Below are positions 10,415 to 59,533 of a DNA stretch of 64,000 nucleotides, one piece after another. The notes below the pieces were generated by a model. That model saw nothing but the letters and a program-made list of their open reading frames with translations, did not search any database and was not told the origin of the DNA. Location: IMG/VR virus record IMGVR_UViG_3300048911_000077; one strand, given 5' to 3'. Positions within the stretch are counted from its first letter, which is position 1. Each line of letters begins with the position of its first letter. The stretch comes from an uncultured virus (IMG/VR IMGVR_UViG_3300048911_000077). Taxonomy: Duplodnaviria; Heunggongvirae; Uroviricota; Caudoviricetes. The position numbers and the translations under genes were made by a program.

Positions 10415-12114
10415 TTAGCGATTAAATGGATTTTTAGTTGAGAGGTCAGCAGTTACTAAACCACCAAGAAAATTACCAATATGTATTTTCTGTGCTAATG
10501 TAATGAATGAGTCACTAGTTGCATCAACTTGGTCATCCTTCACAGCGCGGGTTCCATCGAAGCCTTCCATCTCTGAGAAATAAGCATCATTCCATGCACC
10601 GCGAACATAACGAACAAGGCCCGCTTCCGATGCCGAAACTACTGGTTGAAACCGTACAACCTTAGACTTATTAGATGGGCGCATTCTTGCGAAAAGACCT
10701 TCAGAAATAAGTTCTTTAATCATCATTTGTCCAGCAGCTTTACCTGCCTGGCCCGGCTCTTGTGGAATAATGATTTGAGTACCATCGGGGTCATCTAAGC
10801 CCGTCTCTACAATGCGCTGCATTACCTCTCCAAATCTTGCCCTAAATCGAACAACATCTAGAATGATATATAGACCTTCTTTTGTTTTCCCCATTAAAAC
10901 GCCAGCAGTCCAGTCAGGATTTGGCAACGCTTCACAAGGTAAACTTCCGGCAATATCCCATGCACGACAATATTGAACAATATTTAAATCATATTCATTT
11001 ACGGGCTCACCCAGCCACTCCGCTTTCCAAAATCCTGCGGCATCCTCACGAATATCCCAGTTCCCGTAAAGGTCGCGCTCCTTTTTTACGCGCTTGAGAC
11101 CTTGGAGGTTTGCAAGATATCCGGGGTTGGATTTAATAAGTGGGGGATTATCGTAGATTGTGGCTGAAATAAACTGTAGAGACAGTGGACGACAATGTTG
11201 TTTTTCATCTGTGTCCGGTAAAATATTACCTTCACCATCTCTGTTGCCGTATATCTCTAGGAGTTCCTCTTTCGTGTCTGCCCAAATCATGTCACCAGCG
11301 ATTCGAATAAACCAACGAACTTTACCATCCCGTTCGGGGTCGGGCCGACCTTCGTTTTCTTCTCCTTTTGGAATAATCCACCAATCAATCCAACGTCTCA
11401 GAAAAGAGTCAGGTGAAGGGTTACAAGTCAGGAAAAGATTGGGAACCATCTTTGCTTTAGAACGCAAACGAGATAATACAACCAATGTATGGTCTTCGGT
11501 TATCTGAGTGGCTTCATCTATCATCGCCCCGGAAATTTGGAGGCCACGAAATTTCTCTGCATCTTCGTCAGTTTCCAAGTGAGACATTGCAATAATGGCT
11601 CCGCTTGGAAACGTAAAGGTCATAGCCTTTTTATTAATTTTTACTTTGGGATCAAACGCTTTATATAAACTAGTGGCTTCGTCAAACAAACCAGAAGCTT
11701 TCATCAAAGTTGTTTGATTTTTACGGATAATGAATCCACGATACTGAGGATCGTCAACCCAGCGGAGATGTCGTAACAAACCACAATAGGATTTGCCACC
11801 ACCCATAGCCTTTTAGTTATAGAGTTCGTTAAACTCTCTCCACGCTAGCGGAGGATCGGACTATATCTTCTACTTTCGTAGCCCCCCGTTTCGATTGCAC
11901 TTGCAACCTACTCGCTTACATTCATCAGCGTTAGTCTCTACACGTTCCCTTTCGGGCTTCGCTCGGTATTGCCCACGTCTTTACGTTTGGGTTTCACCGA
12001 ATTAGAGGGGTTTTAAATGGAGGCGCTAAGCTCACCACCATATACAATGATATTACTATTACTCGCCAAAAACCAGCTCTGCTTGCGCGAAGCTGGCTGG
12101 AAACTATAATCCAT
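10415..12114 (-). CDS. terL: Terminase large subunit, two exons (12114..12034 and 11809..10415), 491 aa after splicing
   Basis: Splicing restores Walker A YGG|AMGGGKS; Walker B MIDEA; TCNP; nuclease RAWDIA and DDQVDA. Confidence 0.92.
11810..12033 (-). ncRNA. ORF-less group I intron (224 nt) in terL
   Basis: Exon 1 ends in U pairing with guide GCC; P7 elements GAGACTA and AAGATATAGTC; terminal G; P10 UAGC/GCUA; splicing restores frame. Confidence 0.92.
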
Positions 12115-12119
12115 ATCTG

Positions 12120-12707
12120 TCATCTGGAAATTTCTTTACCATGATTTTCAGAATATCCGTACTCTACTTCCCAATCTTTCCGAGCATTTGCTGCATCTTC
12201 CAGATTTTTAAATAAACCTAAATAATGTCTGACCCTCTTGCCGTCAACAATTTCTTGTCCTTCAGCTTGCCATTTACCAGTCTTTTTATGGAAAGATACA
12301 CCAACAACTCCAGAAGAATTATTACTGTATTTGGAACGGTTTCTGTGGTTAAGTTTATCAATACTAAGTTGTAAATTAGATATTGCGTTATTTTGAGTAT
12401 TTAAATCAATATGATCAATGTCTTCAGGTGGCCATTCACCATTTACGTAGAACCACGCAAGTCTATGAGCTTTGTAAAGCTTTCCACCAAGACCGATTAC
12501 AATATATGGCGAAGGATTTCTCTTGGTCACTCTTGACACTGATCCAGCCTCTAGAGAAGGATTAATATTACTATAGAACCCGTTCTTACCTCTCCAATCT
12601 TTGAAGTGGGAATCTGGTCTATCCAATCTCCAAGTAAACTTTCCAGTTTCTGAATTATAAGTTAAAGCTTCTTTTAAATACTCGTGCGTAAGTAATACTT
12701 CATTCAT
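12120..12707 (-). CDS. Free-standing HNH homing endonuclease with AP2-like C-terminus
   Basis: AHRLAW..IDHID...NNAISNL; SGVVGVSFHKKTGKWQA...YLGLF. Confidence 0.9.
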   Translation of the reverse strand: MNEVLLTHEYLKEALTYNSETGKFTWRLDRPDSHFKDWRGKNGFYSNINPSLEAGSVSRVTKRNPSPYIVIGLGGKLYKAHRLAWFYVNGEWPPEDIDHIDLNTQNNAISNLQLSIDKLNHRNRSKYSNNSSGVVGVSFHKKTGKWQAEGQEIVDGKRVRHYLGLFKNLEDAANARKDWEVEYGYSENHGKEISR

Positions 12708-15337: not shown

Positions 15338-15368
15338 GGGTGGGTCCAGTAAGATTTGAACTTACGAC
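15338..15368 (-). pseudogene. Orphan 3' half of a tRNA (T-arm plus acceptor 3' strand)
   Basis: GTAAG-TTCAAAT-CTTAC-TGGACCC-A-CCC on minus; overlaps the stop codon of the HNH gene. Confidence 0.65.
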
Positions 15369-16090
15369 AAATTACAAACCCTTATATCTTCTACTGAAAG
15401 GTCGCCATAGTCTAACTCCCAGTGACAGTTAGGACATAAGAATATAATGTTTTCGGGTTTATTGCATTCCCAAACACTTTCTGATTTATCAAAATCAGTA
15501 ATTGCCTTTATATGACAAAGCTCAACATGCTTTGAGTAACCGCAATTTGCACAAGAACAACTTTTACCAAAAGTGTTATAGAAATTATGTGCTTTATCTC
15601 TAATAGCTCGGTATTTATTTTGTTCAGTATATCTAGACATCTCACCAATTGAAGTGTTCTTCATCTGATTGGTAGACCTACAAATAAAATTACAGAAATT
15701 TCCCTTTCTGCTCTTTTTGTCAGATTCAAATGAACAATTACACTCTAAGCAAACCTTTATAACTATGTCGGGTTTGCTATTTTTAGCTTGATCTTTCCTT
15801 GAAGAATTATAACAAGACTTCGAACAAAACTTAGCTTCACAAGTTTTATCTATAAACTCAATATTGCAGAATTCACAAGAAATAGTTTTATAGTCTCTTA
15901 AATCTCTCGTATAGGGAATTAGTCCTGCATATAAAATGGCTGAATTAAATGAGCCAAAATATCTGACGAAAGTATTTTTACCGACTAATATTTCTGGGTA
16001 CTTTTTACAGTCTCTGCCAGTGGGATTCCTATTATATATTTCAACAAAATCCAGCAGTTTCTGTTTAAGTATTTCTTTAGTGTATTTCAT
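15362..16090 (-). CDS. HNH homing endonuclease with Zn-ribbon repeats
   Basis: Start re-assigned to MKYTKE (16090); RYFGSFNSAI..AGL repeat, several CxxC, ELCHIK...N...LCPNCHWELD. Confidence 0.85.
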   Translation of the reverse strand: MKYTKEILKQKLLDFVEIYNRNPTGRDCKKYPEILVGKNTFVRYFGSFNSAILYAGLIPYTRDLRDYKTISCEFCNIEFIDKTCEAKFCSKSCYNSSRKDQAKNSKPDIVIKVCLECNCSFESDKKSRKGNFCNFICRSTNQMKNTSIGEMSRYTEQNKYRAIRDKAHNFYNTFGKSCSCANCGYSKHVELCHIKAITDFDKSESVWECNKPENIIFLCPNCHWELDYGDLSVEDIRVCNLS

Positions 16091-16096
16091 AGAATT

Positions 16097-16186
16097 TGGG
16101 GGAACAGGCGAGAATTGCACTCGCAACGGTCAAAAGACTTCCACTTATGAGGTGGATGCCAGCAAACTAATACTGGCGTCTGTTCC
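16097..16186 (-). tRNA. Non-canonical tRNA with CAT anticodon (Met/Ile2-like)
   Basis: GGAACAG/CTGTTCC acceptor, TCCAC-CTCATAA-GTGGA anticodon arm, GCGAG-TGCAATT-CTCGC T arm, encoded CCA. Confidence 0.8.
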
Positions 16187-16331: not shown

Positions 16332-16484
16332 TTAACAAACCATTACAGGAACTTCAATTCCAAGGTCTGCACAAATATTTTCAAGAGCTTCTTGTGCTTT
16401 CTTCCAAGCTTCGATTCGCTCTATGTGTTCTTCTCTTGTACTTGGTTTAATCTTAGTCCTTTCAAGCTGAGATAGTTTAATCAT
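16332..16484 (-). CDS. Hypothetical 50-aa protein (not in ORF track)
   Basis: MIKLSQLERTKIKPSTREEHIERIEAWKKAQEALENICADLGIEVPVMVC; overlaps stop of upstream gene. Confidence 0.5.
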   Translation of the reverse strand: MIKLSQLERTKIKPSTREEHIERIEAWKKAQEALENICADLGIEVPVMVC

Positions 16485-16887
16485 CTTTACTGGGCTCATC
16501 GAAAGTAAGCTTTAACCGAGGAACAAGTTTCACAATCTCAGCGGCTTCTCTCTGCTCATCTTCATCATCGTCGTCCGTACGCTTACCTTCTAGACGAATC
16601 TTGGTCAGAGCTGCCTCTTCTCCACTCGCTGCACGGTCCAGAGAAATGATGCTCGTAATTACCCATTGACTAGTTGAAAGCTGTTTAGCGTCAACTTCAA
16701 TACCTTCAACACTATTCTTGATGTTCTCAAGTGCTTTAGGCTCAATCTCACGAAGCTTTTCAGCAGTAGCGCGTAGTTTGGACTTAGTAATACGAACCTT
16801 GCTATTACCTTTAGTGTTACGATTACTCTTTTCGCCGTCAAAACGTGTTGCTTTTTGCTTGTCTGTATGGGGTTGCTTATTAGCCAT
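16477..16887 (-). CDS. Putative terminase small subunit
   Basis: 136 aa, basic N-terminus with RFDGEKSNRN resembling TerS N-terminal motifs; upstream of terL on the same strand. Confidence 0.45.
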   Translation of the reverse strand: MANKQPHTDKQKATRFDGEKSNRNTKGNSKVRITKSKLRATAEKLREIEPKALENIKNSVEGIEVDAKQLSTSQWVITSIISLDRAASGEEAALTKIRLEGKRTDDDDEDEQREAAEIVKLVPRLKLTFDEPSKDD

Positions 16888-17005
16888 ATTCTATATTCCT
16901 ATGAATAATATTTCTGCTGTGCTTTGTGAATATGTGCACTATACGGCATACGATCTTTAATCGGCAGCTTTTACAAAACACATGAGAAATATTACTTTGT
17001 TTATA

Positions 17006-17221
17006 TTTCTAAATAATCCTGATCAGACCACTGACATTATTGTTAAAGAACAACAAGATTATTTAGAAAGAACACTCACTAAGCGAAGGAGAGAACGCCG
17101 CAAGTGTTCGAAAGATCTATTGGAGGAGAGGAGGACAATAGATCTTTAAGTGCTGTCGTAAGGAGAGGAAATGACAGCGTGAATACCACAATCTTTTTAG
17201 ACTTAATCTTAGTGATTGTGG
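17006..17221. ncRNA. Five-hairpin RNA candidate; three central loops carry AGGAGAG (+) / CUCUCCU (-)
   Basis: Stems at 17006-17069, 17070-17109, 17111-17147, 17152-17178, 17186-17221; intergenic. Confidence 0.7.
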
Positions 17222-17230
17222 GTGAAACTT

Positions 17231-17566
17231 TTAAACTTTGATCAAACCATTGTTCGGAAACTCTGATTCATCATATTCATGACTATAGAGTTTGTAATAT
17301 ACATCATACTGAGGATAACTTTTAGCTTCAGATAATGCCAAAGCATTTGCAACTCTATTAGCCTGCCTTACGTTATCAAACTCACCACAATTTTCAGAAC
17401 TACCCGATCTATCAACTCTAATATAGCTTGTCACAATATAGCGAGTAACTGGCCTCACTGTAAACTCAACAATTTTATTCAAAGGGTCTTCTTGACCAAT
17501 TTGAATATCCCCGGAAATAGTTATGCTTTCAGCTTCGATTTTAATCATTTTATTTCTCCGACCCAT
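17231..17566 (-). CDS. Hypothetical protein
   Basis: 111-aa ORF (likely start MIKIE) with GGAG RBS. Confidence 0.6.
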   Translation of the reverse strand: MGRRNKMIKIEAESITISGDIQIGQEDPLNKIVEFTVRPVTRYIVTSYIRVDRSGSSENCGEFDNVRQANRVANALALSEAKSYPQYDVYYKLYSHEYDESEFPNNGLIKV

Positions 17567-24293: not shown

Positions 24294-25120
24294 GTGAAAA
24301 GAAGCCTAAAGATATCGAGGTGGTGGTTGTCTCATTTACCGATTATACGTCATACGACTTCGTGGAGCCTGGAAGTTTCTTTTCAATGAGTGCTATGCAA
24401 GATTATTATTTCTACAAAACAAGTGATAGAAAATTAGCTCAAGATAAATGTGATGAAATCTTTGGACCAAACCGCTATGTTGTGAAGACATCAAAGAATA
24501 TTGTAAGTAAGTCTAAATTGGAATCTGGTGGGCTATCAGCGACGGGCACTTCTTGTCGAAAAGGGCAACGAGCACCTAATTAACATTCTTAACAAATTAC
24601 CTCATAAATTAACGTTTTAAAGGAGAGAATATGACTTACGATATTGTCTATAAAGAAGAAGATCAGATGTTCCACATGGATGGTAAGGCTGAAACATTCA
24701 TTGGTAACCACCTAGAGAACATCGCTCGTGAATTGCGCATTCAGGAAATGGATGATTGTTTGTCAGAGAGTCATATGCTTGCTGTACTAGAATCTAAAGG
24801 CATTATTGTGAATCTTCTTGAAGAAGATGGTTCTCGGATGGATTGGTAAGGAGGATAATATGTCATTTAATTTTGCAAAGTTTCTTTTAAATCAAACTAA
24901 GATGTGTAATGGACACCTTCAGTCTGAAGCTACTGGAATTACTGTTGAAGAAGGGTTAGAGATTTGTAAAGAACTTGAGGAATACACAAACAATCAATAC
25001 GCATTTACCCTTGAGCTTTGGACTTGTGGAAGTTTTAGTATTTATCAGCAAAGTTTCTGGAAGCCAGGGGAGCATATTCTTGGACACACTGAACGACTTA
25101 TTCTTGGTGTTAGTCCGTGA
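24290..25120 (+). other. Three small hypothetical genes (24290..24583, 24631..24849, 24860..25120)
   Basis: Co-oriented ORFs with good RBS. Confidence 0.6.
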
Positions 25121-25524
25121 AGGAAAAGTATGCGTTAGCTCTAATGGATATGACCTGTAGGTTTGGAGAAACCTCAGAAGCACAAAGGTTAAAAGTCGGT
25201 GCAATGATCTATAAGAATGACTCTTGCATAGCAATGGGCGTGAACGGCCAGCCACCGGGCTGGAACACAGAAGTTTGTGAAGATGAGCATGGACAGACAT
25301 TAGGCACAGTACGGCACGCTGAGGCCGCATGTCTTGAAAAACTTTATCTCAGCACTGAAACATCAGAAGGTGCTGAGATGTTTATTAGCCATAGTCCTTG
25401 TTTGAATTGTAGTTTGAAAATAGTGGCTGCAAAAATTAAACGAGTGTGGTATCGTAACGAATATAGGACAGTTGGGGGTTTAGCATATCTCAAAAGTCAA
25501 GGTGTTGAAGTAATCAAAATTTAA
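25117..25524 (+). CDS. dCMP deaminase-like protein
   Basis: KVGA...G.NG.P.G, HAE, SPCLNC Zn motifs. Confidence 0.85.
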   Translation: MKEKYALALMDMTCRFGETSEAQRLKVGAMIYKNDSCIAMGVNGQPPGWNTEVCEDEHGQTLGTVRHAEAACLEKLYLSTETSEGAEMFISHSPCLNCSLKIVAAKIKRVWYRNEYRTVGGLAYLKSQGVEVIKI

Positions 25525-26224: not shown

Positions 26225-26752
26225 ATGGACATTGTACAGAAAGCTAGGATATTCAGCATCGCAGCTCATGAAGCTGTTGGACAGAAAAGAAAATATACTG
26301 GAGAACCGTACTATCATCATCCAGCAGACGTTGCTATGACTGTCTATAGTGTATATGGTACAAATGAAATGATTGCAGCTGCTTACCTACATGACTGTGT
26401 TGAAGATACGAATGTTTCTCATCTAGTTATTGAAAGGGAGTTTGGACATGTTGTTGCAGAATATGTTTCTGGTCTAACTGATATTTCAATGCCACAAGAT
26501 GGTAATCGTTCAGTACGTAAGGCTATTGATAGGGCTCACACAGCCATACAATCACCGTCTTGCAAAACAATCAAGCTTGCAGACCTAATTTCAAACAGCA
26601 AATCAATCTGTGAACATGACAAAGACTTTGCAAAGGTTTACATCAAAGAGAAAGAGTTACTACTTGAAGTGTTGAAAGAAGGTGATCAGACTCTTTGGAA
26701 CCAGGCTAATGAAATTGTGCAGAAGGCTAAGAAGGAATTGAACATTGACTAA
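26225..26752 (+). CDS. HD-domain hydrolase, SpoT/Mesh1-like
   Basis: AH..QKRK.TGEPY..HP, LHDCVEDT, IKLAD..SN; own promoter TTGCGA-N17-TATAAT. Confidence 0.85.
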   Translation: MDIVQKARIFSIAAHEAVGQKRKYTGEPYYHHPADVAMTVYSVYGTNEMIAAAYLHDCVEDTNVSHLVIEREFGHVVAEYVSGLTDISMPQDGNRSVRKAIDRAHTAIQSPSCKTIKLADLISNSKSICEHDKDFAKVYIKEKELLLEVLKEGDQTLWNQANEIVQKAKKELNID

Positions 26753-27581: not shown

Positions 27582-30040
27582 ATGATTTATGTTGATGACA
27601 AACCTGTAGTATTTAATCTATTCTACCAGACAGGACAGGGTGGCGGATACTATGCGAAACAGTTCATTGGACGGTATGATACACTCAAAGAATTAAACAA
27701 AGTTTTGAATGAGCATAAAGATCAGTGCCCAAGTAAACATTGGGAATTGTTAGTAGAATTCGAATATATTTAAAACTTAGAGATTAGGGAGACAAAATGT
27801 TAGTACCAATGACTGAACAACAACGAGAAGAGATTAAACAAAAACGTATTGCTGACCAAGAGTACGCTAGGGCTAATCTGAAGACAGACTACGCAGATGA
27901 AAAGTTCTGGAAAGATAAAGGGAGCGAGCTTGGTATTCGTTTCCCCGGCTGGTGGATCAAGGGGAGCGAGGTTAAATATATTCGTAGGGCCTGTAAGAAG
28001 CTTGGCGTTGAGGTATCAAAGTATGTGGAAAGCACTGGATTTAAGAATTTGAATGAATTCTCTGCACACAACCCTAAATTAAACGCTGTTTGTATGGTTG
28101 GTTTGGTTATTGAGTACTACCTAGGTCGAGATGGTGTTTAGAAATCAAACGAAAGGGATAAAGTTAGCGTAGTTTTACCATATTCTAGACGAGTTAATCA
28201 AAACAAGCTTGACACGTACAGGGTAATGGTCTATACTATGTTTGTTATATGAATTTTACCGGTTGTTTTAGGAGAGAAATATGTTATTTATAATCTACTT
28301 GATTGTAATTCTGTTGACTTGTTACATAAACGCAGCCACATGTTATGCACGAGGTATTAAATATCCTTGGAAAGAGGATATATTGCTTTGTGTGTTCTGG
28401 CCTGTTACGATGACTATAGCTATTTTGGCTATCATTGCATCTGAGAGCAAACCATAGTGGTTAAATCACACGAAGAACAATTTCAGACATTCCTCTCCCT
28501 TGCACATTCTTGGGGGATGAACATTGAACTATACCCAGGATTGGATAAATATTTCCAAGATCTGAATACCCAAACAAGCTGGATGATGTTTACCAATGCT
28601 TATTGGAAGGGCGTTATGGATGCTGACACTGAACGACGAGAGAAGGGGATTTACTATGTTTAAGTGGATTAAAGAGATTTTATCGTATGGTAGTGGTAAG
28701 CTTTCAGAAGAGTATAACCCAGAACACTTGGTGGTTAAACTTCCCAATATTTCTGAACCTGTTATTTCCTTCTTGAAAACTGTTCGCGAAAACCCAAAAA
28801 GATTTGTTGTTGATCAAGATTGTAGCTACTATGTAGTTGGGAGTACGTGTGAAATACCTAACTATAGGGCATACAGAATTTGGGACAAGAAATTAGATAA
28901 AGGTTGGTATGTCAAGGGTCGACTCTGGTTGACTAATGTATGTTTTATATCTCACAGCAATAAAGAAGGATTTCATCCTTATTCCTTTGAGCATGCATCT
29001 TTCTTATCAGAAGACGAGAAAGAATATCTTATCAAAGAAATCTCAAGCATTATGAACTACAGGATTAATCGTAAAGCAAAACTAGACAAGATTCGTGCAG
29101 ACAGACGTATCCGAGATATACGAAACAAGCTAAAGGAGCTATACAAATGAGTAATCACATCAAAGTACGTACAATCAATGGAGTAACATCATTCTACACA
29201 GCACAAGATGGAGTTCTACTGAAATCAATCTCATCTATTCGATTTGCAGATGTTGAGAACGCTGTATTTAGTATTGTTAAGAAAGATGGAGAATATTACA
29301 CATACCTCCCACAGCGAAATATGCAGCTTGTTAAGCTTGTGGATGCTTTGGATAAAGGCTACTTGATTTACAAGGTGAGTTGATATGAGTTCTGAACGAG
29401 ATACAATTGTAGATTTTATTGAGTGGTTAGAAGATACTAAAAGTATTTATCTTTTACAGGTTAAAGATGATAAGTTTATTACCTGCGAGTATGGCGGGTT
29501 TAAAAATCTACAAATTCTTATTGAAGAGTGGGGTAATGACATCGAGACCAACTTGTAAGTGTGGAATAAAGCTGAATATTGGTATTGTATTCAATACATT
29601 TCTAATTAAACACCAAGTTATGCATTGTATACTAAACAATTAGGAGAGGAAATGAAATATTACCAAGCTGTATACCAAACAGACGCACATGGATTTAATA
29701 TTGTCTATTCTAAAAATATCTGGACAACAAAAGAAGATGCACAAGAATATTTGGACGAGCTTATCAATTATTTGATTGGAGATAAGGGGCCTTATATGTA
29801 TCAGTGTTGGATTAACGAGTTGTGGGTTAATACTCCATAATGTCAAAGTGTGACCTAAAACAACCAAGTGTTCCAGCCTACTACAGAAAGCTAGCAGCCT
29901 CCCTTAACCCAAATAATTCAGATACACCCCTTCTAGCAAGTCAATATTTAAAATATGCTGATGATTATGAGAAAGAAGAGGAAAGATTACTGTACAAGTG
30001 GAAGAAGGCTAGCTATAATCGTGGAAAGAAGTTTAAATAG
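27582..30040 (+). other. Cluster of small hypothetical genes (27582, 27797, 28457, 28656, 29147, 29652, 29840 and shorter ORFs)
   Basis: Co-oriented, overlapping start/stop codons, RBS. Confidence 0.6.
28209..28237 (+). promoter_or_regulatory. sigma70 promoter
   Basis: TTGACA-N17-TATACT. Confidence 0.75.
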
Positions 30041-30044
30041 GAGG

Positions 30045-30566
30045 ATGACTGTGGATCTTTGTAAACATTTACTTTCAAGAAACTATGACCCAAGCCGATA
30101 TAAAAATCAGGTCTTAGATCAGGTTGACAACATTTTAACTGTGTATCTGACTAATTTGTCAGGACAGTTTGTTGGTTTTCAACAGTATAGGCCAGAAGAA
30201 CAGGCTAAACGTCTGAATGATCCTAGATTGAGTAGATATTTCACTTATAGTCCGCGTGGAGTGAATGCTTGTTGGGGTTTGGAAACATTAGACCCTTCAA
30301 AGAAAGACTTGTATCTTGTAGAAGGTATTTTCAAAGCATCTACCCTCCATATGCTGGGTTATAATGCCTTAGCACTGCTCACAAGTCACCCTAAACCAAT
30401 GAAATCTTGGTTGCATACAATGAATTATAATCTAGTTGGTATTGGAGACAACGATAAAGCCGGTTGTGGTATTATCAAAGTGGCTGGTAAAGGATTTAAG
30501 CTTGACAAAGATGTGGATGAGTATAAACTTGAAGACTTATATGCATCACTAGGAGAGATTGAATGA
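30045..30566 (+). CDS. Stand-alone Toprim (primase-like) protein
   Basis: YLVEGIFKA...GYNALAL...GDNDKAG...KDVDE. Confidence 0.75.
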   Translation: MTVDLCKHLLSRNYDPSRYKNQVLDQVDNILTVYLTNLSGQFVGFQQYRPEEQAKRLNDPRLSRYFTYSPRGVNACWGLETLDPSKKDLYLVEGIFKASTLHMLGYNALALLTSHPKPMKSWLHTMNYNLVGIGDNDKAGCGIIKVAGKGFKLDKDVDEYKLEDLYASLGEIE

Positions 30567-41533: not shown

Positions 41534-42595
41534 CTAATCTAGACCCAAGTCAATAGCCTTTCCTCCAAAATTTTCATAAATTTTAGTTATATTATCGTAG
41601 TAATGGGTGTAAGTTGTCTCTGTGTAACCATCCGGTAACATCTCTTTGGAGAAAATTACACAAGGAAGAGTATTTTTGCAATACCTCTCTGCATTTCGAC
41701 AGTCCCCAACAGAATTAAACTCATAGACAGAAGCCAACCTTATGGTGTAATCCTTATTTCTTTTAAAATTCCTATTTCTACTTACAGAATTTACAGATAT
41801 TCCAAACTTTAAACCTAAGATTAAATCACCAGCAAATACTTGATTTATGTAAGCCTGTTTTTGATTGAATCCCCAACTGCACGCACAGCCCACCTTACCC
41901 ATCTGAAGAGACGCGCTCGTTGATTGAAATGTAACAGCACATCGTGAACAATACACCTCCCATCTCCGGACACTAGTAAAAGGTTTATATCCAATAAACC
42001 TAAAAGTAGTATCAACTTCAAATTTACCAGTTTTCATAAAGCTTTCTTTAAAGTAGGATTCATCCTTAGTTCTGGTAATTGCGCCAGCTTCGTTACCACA
42101 TTTTATACAGTTACCTTTATCTGTTGTTTGTGAAATTATGGCGCCAACTCTTGTTCCAACCCACTCCCCATGCACTAAACACTTGAGTCTAACCTCTGTG
42201 TCTGCTTTCTTGTAGGAACCATACCACCCTAAAAACTCTATTCCCAACCTATCAAGTTTTCGTTTAGCCAACACAACATACTGTGCTTCACTCCAATGAA
42301 CGTGGTGCGCACAACCACAGGGCATTTGAGGCTTGTCTCTAATTAGGGAGAATTTTAAACTCTTGAAATAACCTTCGCCGTACAGATCTTTGTCTTTGGC
42401 GCATTCCGAACAATGAAGTATATAGATCTTATCAGCCTTTCTCTTCCCGCTCCAACCAACCACACGTAACTGTTGATTAGCCCCGAAAGTGGGACCGTGT
42501 TTAGACCAATCGTCTTGGTGTAACTCATTTATAATTAGCTCATTTAGGTACAAATTTTTATTACTCCAATACAAAAAGCCCCACTTAAGGGGCAT
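41534..42595 (-). CDS. Putative homing endonuclease with Zn-ribbon repeats
   Basis: Multiple CxxC/C..HG repeats; C-terminal KFGIS..R...AE...LPDGYTET. Confidence 0.7.
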   Translation of the reverse strand: MPLKWGFLYWSNKNLYLNELIINELHQDDWSKHGPTFGANQQLRVVGWSGKRKADKIYILHCSECAKDKDLYGEGYFKSLKFSLIRDKPQMPCGCAHHVHWSEAQYVVLAKRKLDRLGIEFLGWYGSYKKADTEVRLKCLVHGEWVGTRVGAIISQTTDKGNCIKCGNEAGAITRTKDESYFKESFMKTGKFEVDTTFRFIGYKPFTSVRRWEVYCSRCAVTFQSTSASLQMGKVGCACSWGFNQKQAYINQVFAGDLILGLKFGISVNSVSRNRNFKRNKDYTIRLASVYEFNSVGDCRNAERYCKNTLPCVIFSKEMLPDGYTETTYTHYYDNITKIYENFGGKAIDLGLD

Positions 42596-49222: not shown

Positions 49223-49723
49223 TCATATTTGTACCCATTCTGGCTGAATTCTGTTTGTCCACTCTACCTTAATTGGTTTGTCTCTGCAAGCCCAATCTGA
49301 GAATTTCTGACGTAAATATGCCTTGTATGCCTTGGTCTGATCAAACAACCCTAACCGCTGAAATTCCTCTGGCATACACATAGCAAACTGTGAGAGGCAT
49401 CCTTGCTCAATATTCTTGGGGACGTTGCTCAGCATACCTAAAAGCTCACTCGTTTTGTGTGTTTTACCTGTGCGGAAGGTGTATTCATTGCACAGGGCTT
49501 CAAAGTGAGCGTATAGCCATTGGTAATTGGCTGAGGTTGAGCGGGTCCACTTGCTAGAAGGGTGCCCAGAATGCGTAGGCTTATACCCTACTTGAATACC
49601 GTCAAGGCTGTGGTGAGCTGTGGACAATAATTGTGAGCTTTCCAGCACCATTTTCACCAGCAAAACGTTAGGTAGATTGTGTGCTGACTGAATTGGGCAC
49701 TGGTCAGATACAAAGATATTCAT
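49223..49723 (-). CDS. Pyrimidine-dimer DNA glycosylase-like protein (DenV-related family)
   Basis: MNIF...VKMVLESSQLLSTAH...TH..HP...W...EYTFRTGKTHK; start re-assigned to 49723. Confidence 0.7.
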   Translation of the reverse strand: MNIFVSDQCPIQSAHNLPNVLLVKMVLESSQLLSTAHHSLDGIQVGYKPTHSGHPSSKWTRSTSANYQWLYAHFEALCNEYTFRTGKTHKTSELLGMLSNVPKNIEQGCLSQFAMCMPEEFQRLGLFDQTKAYKAYLRQKFSDWACRDKPIKVEWTNRIQPEWVQI

Positions 49724-49808
49724 GATAAAGCTTCTATGTGAGTGGCTGATGTGAGAATCATACAGGCAAAAGAAAAGGCCGTCAAGCGGCCTGTAGGGTT
49801 TATTTCTA

Positions 49809-50219
49809 TTAATCACACCATCCCGGCTGTTCATGTTCTTTACGAGCTTTTGGAATACAATCTGCACAAGCCCTGCCTGCAAAACTGTAGCGATAAGTTT
49901 TATCTACTTCTTTCTTGCAAATACCACAAGTAGTTTCAGCTTTCAAGAATGTTTCAGGGTTGTATACTGTTGGTAATTCAATACACAAACCATCTGGAGC
50001 CCAAGCGTGTAGACTTACTTCATACTTCCACTTACCAACATCTTTACGAGTGATTGCAGAGATTACAAAACCATCACGTTTAAGCCTACAAGCTCGCATA
50101 GCTGGCTCGTTATCATAAGTTTGAGACAATTCCCATCCATCTTCTACAGCTGCTTGAATGAATGCATTAGCTGCTTCAAAGTATTTTACATCGTTTGTGT
50201 GACCGAATTCGTTAATCAT
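49809..50219 (-). CDS. Hypothetical protein with C-terminal Zn finger
   Basis: CGIC...CADC; GGAG RBS before MINEF. Confidence 0.6.
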   Translation of the reverse strand: MINEFGHTNDVKYFEAANAFIQAAVEDGWELSQTYDNEPAMRACRLKRDGFVISAITRKDVGKWKYEVSLHAWAPDGLCIELPTVYNPETFLKAETTCGICKKEVDKTYRYSFAGRACADCIPKARKEHEQPGWCD

Positions 50220-54397: not shown

Positions 54398-54452
54398 CTA
54401 TTCTTGAAAGCATTTGAATTAAGATGAGATTAGAGATTATGGGAGAGATGAT

Positions 54453-56171
54453 TTGAGTAACTACGAAGATGAAAAATCAAAAGCTTATCACAAAGGAGGT
54501 TTTAAAAATAACCAAATGGCCGAGAATTCCAGTATTAAAAAAGAGACATTAAAGGAAGTTCTTTCTTTCAAATGTCTCGCTGTACCTGAACGAGGACTTA
54601 CTAAAGCTGATGCTGAGTTCTATGAAATTCGCTCTGCTGTAAGCCAAAAAGACGGTAAAACAATTGAGGCCACTTATTTTCCGTACTTTAGTAAGTCTGG
54701 TGAGTTAACTGGCTTTAAGAAGCGTGATTGGACTGTACCTAAAGATCACGACTTCCACTTTACAACAGTTGGAACAGTTAAGATTAATGCTCAAATGTTT
54801 GGTCAACCACAAACACCTAGCAAAGGTCGTAAGCTCATCATCGTTGAGGGTGAGGAAGAGGTAGCCGCAACACGGCGAGCCATTCTTGACAGCCTAAAAG
54901 GGACTAAATACGAAGGTAAGATTGAACCTTCTGTAGTGTCCGTGTCTCTTGGGACGGCTAACGCTGCTGAAAGTGTTGCCCACAACTTAGAGTACGTGCA
55001 GTCTTTCACAGACTTGGTACTGGCGTTTGACAGTGATGAAGCTACTGCTAAAGAGTTGAAGAAAGGTATCCGTAAAGGCAAAGAGGCAAAGGAAGAAGTA
55101 GCTGGACTTTTGCTTACAGATAATATTTACACTATTACACATCCTCAAGGTATGAAGGACTCCCGTGACTGCGTGGTTAATGGTCACTCTGTAGAACTTG
55201 GCAAAATTCTGGCGTTTGGTCTTCAAAAGTACAGTCCGGAAAAGATTATTGCAGGCGATGATGTTGATCTTGATGATTTGCTTGAGCCTTTACGAGAAGG
55301 TCATTATGTACAACGCTACCCAAAATTGATGGAGAAGATTCACGGCTTACGTACAGGCAATGAGTTGATTACTTACACAGCATTTAGTGGAGTAGGCAAA
55401 TCGACACTTAATCGTGAAATTGCATGGGAACTTACAGCAGCAGGATATAAGGTGGGGTTCATCTTCCTAGAAGAGCCAACTAAGAAAACACAACAGTCTT
55501 TGATTGCTTTGGAACTTGGTGTACGTCTACCCGACTTTCGTAAAAACCCTTTGTCCGTAGCGACACGCGAAGTAATTGAAGCTGCAAAGAATAAAGTAAT
55601 CTCTAATGGAAAGACTTTCTTTCTTGATCACTTTGGTTCTATGAAAGTTGATAAATTGATGCAACAGATCAAATACCTCCACTTCATTTGTGGCTGCGAA
55701 CATATCTTTATTGACCATATCTCTATGTTGGTTGCTGGTATGGAAAGCAGTAATGAACGAAAAGATATTGATATGTTGTATGAAGAACTTGCAGCATTCA
55801 TGACAAACAACAATGTAACTATTCATGCTGTGTGTCACTTGAAGCGGGTAGAGGATAACGCCCCACGTCTGAAGGAGGGTGAAGAGCCTAAGGCTTACTG
55901 GAGAACTGTTCGCAAGGAGATGCTCCGTGGTAGTGCTGGTATTGAACAAATGAGCACATGTATTGTTGCGCTTGAGAACGAGGTAATGCCTTCAGAAACA
56001 CGTGGACGTGTCCGAACTAAAGTACTGAAAGATCGTGAGTGGGGCGAGCTTGGTGTGTGTGACACAATGATGCAACTGCAAGATGGGCGACTTCATGTTG
56101 TTCCAGATTATGATGGTTGGATCTATGATCCAGACGGAACTAACCAACAAGAGAATTATCAGGAATTTTAA
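54453..56171 (+). CDS. Primase-helicase (T7 gp4-like)
   Basis: Toprim IIVEGE...FDSD; Walker A AFSGVGKST; IFIDHIS; LRGSAGIEQ. Confidence 0.92.
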   Translation: MSNYEDEKSKAYHKGGFKNNQMAENSSIKKETLKEVLSFKCLAVPERGLTKADAEFYEIRSAVSQKDGKTIEATYFPYFSKSGELTGFKKRDWTVPKDHDFHFTTVGTVKINAQMFGQPQTPSKGRKLIIVEGEEEVAATRRAILDSLKGTKYEGKIEPSVVSVSLGTANAAESVAHNLEYVQSFTDLVLAFDSDEATAKELKKGIRKGKEAKEEVAGLLLTDNIYTITHPQGMKDSRDCVVNGHSVELGKILAFGLQKYSPEKIIAGDDVDLDDLLEPLREGHYVQRYPKLMEKIHGLRTGNELITYTAFSGVGKSTLNREIAWELTAAGYKVGFIFLEEPTKKTQQSLIALELGVRLPDFRKNPLSVATREVIEAAKNKVISNGKTFFLDHFGSMKVDKLMQQIKYLHFICGCEHIFIDHISMLVAGMESSNERKDIDMLYEELAAFMTNNNVTIHAVCHLKRVEDNAPRLKEGEEPKAYWRTVRKEMLRGSAGIEQMSTCIVALENEVMPSETRGRVRTKVLKDREWGELGVCDTMMQLQDGRLHVVPDYDGWIYDPDGTNQQENYQEF

Positions 56172-56855: not shown

Positions 56856-59533
56856 ATGGTTGACATTACGTGGGACATTGAAGGTACAGGTCTTTTAAAC
56901 AGTGAGACAATCGACTATAAATCCAGTCCTTACAAACTAAAGGATAACTTTAAGTTCCACTCTATTGTCGTTGAAGACCACGAGACAGGGGAGCTTACTG
57001 CCTTTTATGATGGCCCGGAATATGTCTTTGATGGTCAGGAGTATTCTGAGGTTGTAGGTGATCAGACATATGTTCTGAAAGACTACGAACCAATCAGTTA
57101 CACCCGTAGAGTATTGTCAGATTTCCCAGAGTTTGTTAAAACTACGAGCTTGAATAAAATTGTATGTCATAATCAGATCAACTTCGATCTATTGGCATGT
57201 AAGTTGTATTACGGAATGGACTATGAAGTTGAACCTGATTTGTGGTGTGGTAACAAAGTAATTTTTGAGGATACTCTTGTAATCAGCAAGGCACTTAACC
57301 CAGATCGTTTGGGCGGACATAGCTTGGATGCATTGTCTGAGAAGACAGGTATTCGCAAGATTGCGTTCCGTAAACATCTAGGAACAGATGTACGATTTAA
57401 ACACTTTGCTGCTGACATGCTCTACTACAACATTTACGATGTAAAAGCCAACACTCAAGTTTATAAAATGTTGGAAGTTGAAAAAGGTGATTGGGATTGG
57501 TCAGACGCCATTAGTCTTGAAAAGTCTGTAGCGGAGATTATCACTCGACAAGAGCACCGTGGCTTTGACTTCAAGACAGAACGTGCTATTGAACTTGTTC
57601 GTGATTTGGATATCAAGCTTGAAGCTTTGCGTAGTGAAGTAGAACCTGTCTTACCTCCTAAACCGTTGGCAAAGACACGAATGGATTTCTACACACCTAG
57701 TGAAAAGCAGTTCAAGAAGTCTGGTGAACTGAATGAAAATATTAAGAAGTTTGTAGCTAAACACGAAGGAACAATTAATGAAGACAATGTTGCAACAATC
57801 TTTGGTAAAGAATATCCTCTGCCAATGCCTGCTGTACCATTGGTTACTGAAGTTCCTTCGACTTTGAAAGATACGACACACATTAAGGAGTGGCTGGTTT
57901 CTAAGTTTGGCTGGAATCCTTCAGCGTGGAAGGAGCGGGATTTAACTTGTGACGCTAAGAAGAATCGTCTTAGCCAAGAGAAGTTTGAAGCAGCAGTAGA
58001 GCGATATGTTGAACAGACATTGGCAAGCCCTTTTTGTAAATATCGTCTTGAGCATTTGAACCTTAATAAATCAAATATTAAGGCTAAGTTGTTGGCAAAA
58101 GGGTGTGCAAAAAGCTTTAAAGTGCTGACTAACCCTACGCTGACGGTAGGGCAGGAGAAAGAGATTTGCCCCGGACTTATTGCACTAGAAAGTAGTTTTC
58201 CTCACGCAAGAAAGCTTGCTGACTTCCTTACTTATAGCCATCGGCGTAACAGCATTCTTGGTGGTGGGTATGATCCTGAAGAAGATGACGATGAACACGA
58301 AAGTGGGTTTATGCCTAACGTTCGGGAAGATGGTCGTATTCCAACACCAGCAGACACTTGTGGAGCTGGGACGAGCCGCTTCAAACATCGTTTGGTAGCA
58401 AACATTCCCCGTAATTCCTCGCTTTATGGGGAAGAAATGCGTAGTTTGTTTGGAGTTGGTAAAGGATATGTGCAGCTAGGCTATGATTTCGACAGCTTGG
58501 AAGCTAAGATTGAAAGCCATTATGTATACCGCTATAAAGGAGGTCCAGAATATGGTATTAGCTTAACAGCAGAGAAGCCTAATGATTGTCACTCTGTACT
58601 TGCTCGCCGTATTACAGAAATCCTTGGGAGAGAGTTTCCGCGTAACAGTGCAAAATCTGTGAAGTACGGTTGTAGCTACAATGCACAAGTAGCACGGGTA
58701 GCTAAAATTGTTGGATGTGATATTCCAACAGCACAAATCATCTTTGATGAGTTTTGGACCTTGGCGAATCCTCTGAAAGAACTGAAAGACCGTATGCAGC
58801 AGTATTGGGAGACAACAGGTCAGAAGAAGTTCTTGATTGGTATTGACAAGCGAAAGCTTCCAATTCGGTCAAAGGGTAATGTGATCAATACAGCATTCCA
58901 AAGCGCTGGTGTAATCTGTGCAAAGCGTGCGATGGTTATTCATGATCGTAAGCTTAAGTCTGAAGGCATGTCTGTAGACTTCTTTAAAGATGATTGGAAA
59001 AGTAAAAAGTACTGTCAACAAATGATTGCCTACCATAAATAATTGTGGCCTTGCATTGTGAAGTGCATTGAATAACCTGTTGAATTCGGGGAAAGCTAAA
59101 GCGTAAGCCATGCCAATCCCGAGCGAAGCCTAGAAATAGGAACGTGTAACGACTATCCCGTAAGGGAGTAGGATGCAAGCGCATTCGAAGCGGCAGGGGG
59201 CTCACAGAGTCCGTGATATAGTCTGATTCTCCGTGAAAGCGGAGTGAGTTTAGCGAACTCAATAACTGAATGGATGAGGCGCAATTAGAGTTGAGCAGAG
59301 AGCTTGTCAAATTCAAAATGTTTGACACAGAAAAAGAAGCTAAGCAGTTTTCTGAGGAAGGCAAAGTATGGAGTGATGTCGGACACGCTAAGGATGGTCG
59401 ATTCTTTCGTTCATGGTGTCGTGCAGGGGAGCTTGCAGCAGAGGCTGTAAAAGAAGCTGGACAGTACTACAAACTTAACGTAGAATTGACGGCAGGGTAT
59501 GTAATTGGTAGCGGCTGGGATAATTGTCACTAA
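56856..59533 (+). CDS. Family A DNA polymerase, two exons (56856..59036 and 59273..59533), 813 aa after splicing
   Basis: Exonuclease DIE / HNQINFD; motif A DFDSLE; motif B RNSAKSVKYG; motif C restored as AYH|DEAQ. Confidence 0.93.
59037..59272 (+). ncRNA. ORF-less group I intron (236 nt) in the DNA polymerase gene
   Basis: Exon CCAU pairs with GUGG (U-G splice site); P7 CGACTA / GATATAGTC; terminal G; in-frame HDE after splicing. Confidence 0.92.

Follow-up and report, generated by a model that had tools for sequence, protein, structure and literature searches.

The DNA analysed here is a 64,000-nucleotide stretch from an uncultured virus (IMG/VR record IMGVR_UViG_3300048911_000077), referred to below as the window. 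It encodes a tail sheath, a major head protein, a head protease, a portal and a large terminase with a group I intron inside its gene, together with a primase/helicase, an intron-bearing DNA polymerase and an exonuclease. No nucleotide match to the window was found among 50,697 deposited phage records, and the identity of its capsid protein to those of cultured phages does not exceed 43.8%, the best matches being Limnohabitans phage DC31 and the PAK_P1/KPP10-type Pseudomonas myoviruses. PAK_P3, which serves for comparison below, is a myovirus at some evolutionary distance: the capsid protein of the window shares about 43% identity with PAK_P-type phages. The hairpin array that forms the subject of this work occupies a 343-nt gap between the minus-strand open reading frames 17566..17231 and 16887..16477. 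This position is the upstream edge of the minus-strand packaging and structural block, and the neighbouring genes run in the same direction.

The group I intron in the large terminase gene (11837–12099, minus strand) adjoins an HNH endonuclease ORF (12120–12707), and a second one is situated at the end of the DNA polymerase gene (59026–59245, plus strand); their scores of 67.8 and 66.8 bits exceed the Rfam gathering score. Matches to known families are nearly absent from the roughly 90 small ORFs of the window. Those with a match include a protein with two CapR homology domains (41534–42553, minus), a dCMP deaminase (25117–25524, plus), an HD-domain protein (26225–26752, plus) and a DenV-like pyrimidine-dimer glycosylase (49223–49816, minus).

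Structure, conservation and strand of the hairpin array

The whole structured RNA is about 225 nt long and lies at 17002..17230 on the minus strand, as delimited by its match to the covariance model described below. It begins with a conserved single-stranded 5′ tail, GUUUCAC(C), at 17222..17228 (consensus ‘aguUucaCc’ in 18 aligned members), which is followed by five domains. P1 (17186..17221) is a hairpin whose apical part is conserved (AAGA..AAUUCUA..AAAG) and whose helices 1–2 show changes on both sides in 8/8 outer pairs. P2 (17152..17178) has a stem of 6 bp, helix 3, in which all six pairs covary and 98.1% of cells are paired, and a 15-nt loop, AUUUCCUCUCCUUAC (17158–17172). P3 (17111..17147), detected as inverted repeat I4, is a perfect 12-bp stem—helix 4, with covariation in 12/12 pairs—closed by the 13-nt loop UCCUCCUCUCCUC (17123–17135). 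P4 (17070..17109; helices 5–6) is a 14-bp hairpin with a bulge, three G–U pairs and the loop UUCUCUCCUU (17086–17095). P5 (17006..17069; helices 7–9 and RNAalifold) is Y-shaped, with a 16-bp stem that leads to two 5-bp hairpins and has the conserved ends UUUCUWAA...UUWAGAAA. All five stems described in the original prediction, including the perfect 12-bp one, are thus present at their positions. The prediction had given the three loops in the plus-strand reading, where they are AAGGAGAGAA, GAGGAGAGGAGGA and AAGGAGAGGAA.

A covariance model, R1, was built from the window sequence alone (229 positions, 70 pairs) and used for all model searches; as a single-sequence model it may miss distant members. 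R1 matches the window itself with 291 bits over model positions 1–229. At E<1e-6 it recovers full-length matches in the window and at 17 other loci, all on the gene strand, and there are weaker matches in L018 (partial), L023, L032 and L044. The genome G001 also carries the element (34.9 bits, with search filters off). All viral contigs were scanned independently with a DNA pattern made up of the P4 loop core and both ends of P5, which returned 26 stretches; 19 were confirmed by R1, eight of them on new contigs, and seven were chance matches. The family totals about 31 viral contigs, and each of the 11 relatives' contigs examined (estimated completeness at least 95%) contains exactly one copy. 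These 11 are near-complete myovirus contigs of 83–92 kb from an uncultivated clade; searches of Limnohabitans phage DC31 and of the Pseudomonas phages vB_PseuGesM_254 and Boevelstad with R1 gave zero matches.

Across the 18-member alignment, 96.6% of the 1159 pairing cells are standard, compared with 66.6% in shuffles and 36–44% when partners are slid. The check on covariation proposed with the original prediction gave changes on both sides in 63 of the 70 pairs, with a covariation score of 0.711 against 0.06–0.085 for slid partners, although the alignment was fitted to R1 and is therefore biased toward the modelled structure. P5 was recovered independently by RNAalifold from a plain MAFFT alignment, with 19/24 pairs compensated. 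The stems differ entirely between members while the loops still read CUCC, and the same was seen by eye in the regions upstream of relatives of the downstream gene, where stems differ and pyrimidine loops are the same. The loop core CUCC is present in all members. Of the three loops, that of P4, with its core CUCUCC, is the most strongly conserved: CUCUCC occurs in 17/18 aligned members, including the window itself, and CCUCUCC in 14/18. In unconstrained folds, three CU-rich hairpin loops form in 19 of 21 elements and two in the remaining two.

The strand from which the RNA is read had been left undecided in the original prediction, which regarded the G–U evidence as split, with the stem at 17152 favouring the plus strand. 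The relatives settle this for the minus strand. The two extra plus-strand pairs of the stem at 17152 are not kept, and in the minus-strand reading of the 18-member alignment G–U or U–G cells number 87 against 14 A–C or C–A cells. Several pairs are mostly G–U (for example 13/18 members at columns 317–376); since such pairs are mismatches on the plus strand, the RNA corresponds to the minus-strand reading. The minus strand also folds better, at −69.3 kcal/mol (z −7.7) against −64.7 kcal/mol (z −4.2) for the plus strand. The view of the loops as pyrimidine runs complementary to Shine–Dalgarno (SD) sequences is upheld on this strand, as the loops are kept in relatives while the stems around them covary. 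Taken together, the evidence supports the array as a functional, conserved RNA on the minus strand that presents pyrimidine loops, and not as a set of chance hairpins.

The alternative that had been raised, a plus-strand transcript whose GGA loops form an RsmY/RsmZ/CsrB-type sponge for CsrA or RsmA, is very improbable on the same grounds. GGA does occur in every plus-strand loop, and the plus-strand fold does beat its shuffles, but the 87 G–U cells of the minus-strand reading become A–C mismatches on the plus strand, P4 is only partly formed there, and the tRNA genes adjoin the element on the minus strand. The conserved motif is also longer than GGA. The candidate was rejected, the loops of the inferred transcribed strand being CU and not GGA. 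A search of both strands of 16800–17350 against Rfam up to E=10 gave nine matches; none is to CsrB, RsmY or RsmZ, and the best is to ar14, with 23.4 bits.

The family itself is absent from Rfam 15, in which the only matches to the window at gathering thresholds are the two introns. A catalogue of 10,006 viral structured-RNA candidates has been published (PMC10690425); the identifiers of six family contigs are absent from the six supplementary files searched, while a listing in three others is possible. No tRNA-linked, five-domain RNA with triple anti-SD loops from a virulent-type phage clade was found in the literature searched. Contigs from four RNA-library runs are relatives; they cover the element and its flanking genes alike, with no excess depth, and as contigs give neither strand nor ends. 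Between 5 and 8% of sampled words were present in the RNA-library runs; three DNA runs contain 99–100% of them and may be where the window comes from.

tRNA genes, leader stem and the downstream gene

Phages of the clade carry zero to three tRNA genes, which, where present, adjoin the RNA on the same strand. An exact tRNA-CCA|GUUUCACC junction is found in five contigs (L029, L019, L039, L027 and L044), in which the tRNA identities are Gly, Leu and, three times, Thr. In the window, the RNA is preceded by an ORF, and the sole tRNA gene, a tRNA-Met(CAT) predicted by ARAGORN at 16097..16186 on the minus strand, lies 800 nt downstream. This tRNA-Met is unusually long, at 90 nt with the anticodon at position 38, and it overlaps the predicted start of an HNH-like ORF (15362–16126); the tRNA may contain an insertion or intron, or the start of the ORF may be miscalled. 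In L014 (1131–1213) and G009, 80–84 nt, approximately the length of a tRNA, separate the last ARAGORN tRNA from the RNA. In L014 this gap ends in GCACCA, which suggests, from sequence, an unrecognised or degenerate tRNA-like gene directly 5′ of the RNA.

The usual downstream neighbour of the RNA is a conserved gene for a 136-aa protein (16477..16887, minus strand), the first of the packaging and structural block, with relatives in 28 viral loci. The protein belongs to no PHROG or Pfam family, has no tblastn match in the phage collection and no relative in bacterial genome assemblies, and AlphaFold models it with low confidence (pLDDT 65.6). A link to DUF5681 suggested by Atlas (score 0.87) was discarded, as profile comparison with the DUF5681 protein of PAK_P3 gave a probability of 0.4%. 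The ribosome binding site (RBS) of the 136-aa gene is weak and not of the GGAG type (AUAGGA or AUAGGU). The end of P5 lies 24–55 nt from the next start codon in 12/19 members; in G001, G012 (L027) and L044 the RNA lies 1.2–2.8 kb away from the 136-aa gene. No Rho-independent terminator was found 3′ of the element.

Between the RNA and the next start codon the window contains a long-range leader stem, P6 (16906..16994, minus strand), which was detected as inverted repeat I1 and has 25-nt arms that are 84% complementary. Its arms, UAUUUCUCAUGUGUUUU and CACAGCAGAAAUAUUAUU, are conserved, and the insert that they enclose, about 39 nt in the window, varies in length among relatives. The P6 duplex has a predicted energy of −21 to −25 kcal/mol in the window, L024 and L015, and is absent where the spacer measures 24–55 nt; relatives with P6 inserts have a spacer of 107–293 nt between P5 and the start codon. 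In L033 the insert between RNA and gene is a tRNA-Gln. P6 looks like a processing stalk. With the tRNA junctions, the lack of a terminator and the short spacer between P5 and the start codon, the layout resembles that of a stable-RNA operon running into the late genes.

Complementarity to ribosome binding sites and possible functions

The loop motif exactly complements the RBS core used most often by the phage. The window contains 22 copies of AGGAGAG; shuffled sequences contain 7.2 ± 2.6, and none of 100 shuffles reached 22. The original prediction had listed this heptamer before the start codons of at least 14 non-structural ORFs. All 14 sites are real and 12 of them lie 3–12 nt before an ORF of at least 35 codons, the sites at 30551 and 63923 failing this rule. 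The identities that it reported between loops and RBSs, over 14 nt between 17161–17174 and 29642–29655 and over 10 nt with 24620–24629, are both correct. It had further proposed that late genes escape the RNA, since none of about 20 RBSs that it read in the structural block was AGGAGAG.

This temporal discrimination was examined in the window and in the genomes of eight relatives, with genes called by a simple rule; orthologues of the minus-strand window genes up to 16,887 were classed as late, and those of the remaining blocks as other. In the window, GGAGAG is indeed found in the RBS region of 0/17 late genes, although with 13/121 other genes carrying it the two classes are statistically indistinguishable (Fisher p=0.37). 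When the window and the relatives' genomes are pooled, 6/133 late and 27/353 other genes carry GGAGAG (p=0.31), so that late-gene orthologues in relatives do have the motif; among GGAG-containing RBSs the pooled counts are 6/46 and 27/158 (p=0.65). Any GGAG is present in the RBS region of 46/133 late and 158/353 (about 45%) other genes, with a pooled Fisher p of 0.05 that overstates the evidence, the genomes being related. The median predicted duplex with the genome's own loops is −6.7 kcal/mol for late and −8.1 kcal/mol for other genes, and the pooled Mann–Whitney p=0.001 is to be read with the same caution. This difference is significant in 2/8 genomes and reversed in one. With medians of −6.7 to −8.1 kcal/mol, the loop–RBS duplexes are about as stable as those formed by a generic anti-SD, and for a generic 16S anti-SD the medians move the same way as the loop medians in 8/8 genomes, which indicates that late genes simply have slightly weaker SD sequences. 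Across the window and the eight relatives' genomes nothing indicates that the loops have been adapted to leave late genes untouched, and the proposed escape of late messages is not borne out.

GGAGAG makes up 12–23% of GGAG-type sites across all nine genomes. Within these nine, a GGAGAG or GGAGAGG ribosome site is not conserved throughout in any gene family. The primase/helicase (site at 54442–54455, plus strand) and its orthologues in five relatives have GGAGAG a few nucleotides before a TTG or GTG, in 6/9 genomes in all; the explanation may be conservation of a non-ATG start together with a loop-matching site, or an artefact of start choice, the starts being doubtful. Among the RBSs of PAK_P3, GGAGAG is less frequent (9/185) and GGAGG far more so (83/185), but with a GC content of 55% against 40% this phage is no clean RNA-less control.

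The most likely mechanism, to which we assign a probability of about 0.45, is that of a trans-acting multivalent anti-SD RNA that pairs with GGAG ribosome sites; the step from loop complementarity to function is inferred from sequence. In this mechanism, the RNA would be released from a tRNA-containing precursor, its 5′ end probably being made by 3′ processing of the tRNA. It would then act in trans as a multivalent mimic of the 3′ tail of 16S rRNA. The three pyrimidine loops (CUCC core, mostly CUCUCC), and possibly the 5′ UCACC tail, would pair with purine-rich SD regions and hide them from 30S subunits, the best partners of the loops being GGAGAG or GAGGAG among GGAG sites. Selectivity may come from the purine flanks of the site. 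Long purine runs of the AAGGAGAGAA type would allow 8–13 bp, and a pyrimidine-flanked GGAG about 4 bp. Given such flank dependence, the RNA would be expected to damp a subset of host and phage messages and not to divide temporal classes neatly. This reading is favoured by the repetition of the C/U loops, by their exact complementarity to the SD and by the 5′ tail, whose UCACC corresponds to the neighbouring part of the 16S tail. More tentatively, it is possible that in this virulent-type clade a stable RNA processed from a tRNA operon reprograms translation initiation, its loops and UCACC tail competing with the 30S subunit.

Several observations do not sit easily with masking of SD sequences in trans. 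As a matching RBS is not retained across the genomes by any target gene, the near-invariant P4 loop is left without an identified partner. The phage's own late genes carry GGAG (46/133), so that global masking would hit the phage too. The lack of a terminator also counts against a free small RNA, and the spacer of 24–55 nt between P5 and the start codon (12/19) is as compatible with a leader as with a free small RNA. The array could instead work in cis, as a leader or processing element that forms the structured 5′ portion both of the late packaging and structural transcript and of the tRNA precursor, with possible roles in message stability, RNase processing or read-through, or as a landing pad for S1 that boosts the downstream gene with its weak SD. 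Its place directly upstream of the 136-aa gene, with no terminator between the two and a weak, non-GGAG RBS following, is what such a leader would have; the element is also single-copy and fixed in position, and P6 brackets inserts that include a tRNA. We nevertheless consider a leader unlikely, because in G001, G012 (L027) and L044 the RNA is far removed from the gene that it would serve, and because neither stability nor processing needs three loops with a shared SD-complementary core.

The same near-invariance of the P4 loop, coupled with the lack of a conserved RNA target, would be expected of a protein decoy, in which the CU loops, through their likeness to the 16S 3′ tail, would sequester a phage or host protein with affinity for the anti-SD or for pyrimidine-rich single strands. 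Such a protein might be S1, a cold-shock protein, a nuclease directed to the 16S tail, or a defence factor. A scaffold of several hairpins that present the same loop motif again and again is typical sponge architecture, as in CsrB and RsmZ, and this counts in favour of a decoy. A Pfam scan of 89 window ORFs, however, found no CSD, KH, S1, Hfq or CsrA domain, and we know of no bacterial protein family defined by binding to CUCUCC loops. That the motif should be the exact complement of the commonest RBS core of the phage also speaks against titration of a protein, and a decoy seems to us, like a leader, an unlikely explanation. Masking of ribosome binding sites in trans is the preferred reading.

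Comparison with known RNAs and proteins

Inhibition of translation by RNA loops that pair with the SD belongs to a mechanism class that is already known in bacteria. ar14 is an alphaproteobacterial small RNA, and NfeR1 represses mRNAs through pairing of its loops with ribosome binding sites. The ar14 model (RF02344) is the sole Rfam model with any resemblance to the present RNA, and matches it on the minus strand at 17067–17184 (23.4 bits, E 0.027, well below the gathering score of 58.8 bits). Like the ar14/NfeR1 ‘cuckoo’ RNAs, the present RNA has several hairpins with pyrimidine anti-SD loops. The ar14 loops read CCUCCUCCC; those of the family are pyrimidine runs built on CUCC, commonly CUCUCC, and only some include CCUCC. 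ar14 consists of three hairpins in about 123 nt, in contrast to five domains in about 225 nt, and the present RNA is phage-encoded, tRNA-linked and without an intrinsic terminator. The resemblance is one of analogy, not homology.

Repression of translation by C/U-rich loops that pair with the SD is also known for RNAIII, RsaE/RoxS and LhrC, as for NfeR1. The Staphylococcus aureus RNAs RNAIII and RsaE/RoxS and the Listeria RNA LhrC share with the present element repeated, exposed C/U-rich motifs complementary to the SD. These RNAs are chromosomal, with their own promoter and terminator and with defined regulons; the element described here, a candidate small RNA, belongs to a virulent-type phage, and no conserved target was found for it in the nine genomes. 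At the level of function, there is a parallel with RegB of phage T4, a protein endoribonuclease that inactivates messages at the GGAG of their SD sequences and is selective for message class. The proposed logic is the same, but here the agent would be an RNA that acts by pairing, and class selectivity is not seen.

A role has been established for very few small RNAs of virulent phages. The present one forms a clean, strongly covarying family in which a repeated loop motif points to one target, the SD sequence. If RBS masking is indeed its function, it would mean that phages govern translation initiation through an RNA that imitates the recognition element of the ribosome. The RNA would then be a counterpart of RegB and the first anti-SD RNA of a multivalent kind to be reported from a lytic phage; it would also offer a small natural scaffold for multivalent masking of the SD. 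Whatever the mechanism, the family merits an Rfam entry.

The closest experimental precedent for late small RNAs at such a genomic position is PAK_P3, whose sRNA1 and sRNA2 are abundant late in infection and are encoded among tRNAs immediately before the large terminase gene (passages of PMC4933390 and the annotation). For sRNA2 those passages propose T-loop mimicry and not SD pairing. Triple CU loops are absent from the PAK_P3 sRNA regions, whose folds are no more stable than those of shuffled sequences, and a search of the whole PAK_P3 genome with R1 at default filters gave no match. In PAK_P3 (L087 39704–42517; 84.7–87.5 kb) the order is a DUF5681 protein, sRNA1, tRNA-Tyr, sRNA2, tRNA-Gln and the large terminase. 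This loosely parallels the order of tRNA, RNA, 136-aa gene, tRNA-Met and terminase described above, although proteins and RNAs are without detectable homology.

The species 1 and 2 RNAs of T4, rnaC and rnaD, are likewise small stable RNAs directly 3′ of a tRNA, rnaD beginning 2 nt after tRNA-Arg; the RNAs of the T4 tRNA cluster are described in PMC4933390 as unexplained since the 1970s. They lack the three CU-loop hairpins, and a search of the T4 region with R1, filters off, gave no homology to rnaC or rnaD (best 3.8 bits, E 4.6). T4 rnaD (L045 1554–1672, minus strand) has one predicted hairpin with a pyrimidine loop, CCCUCUUA, as its single loop of this kind.
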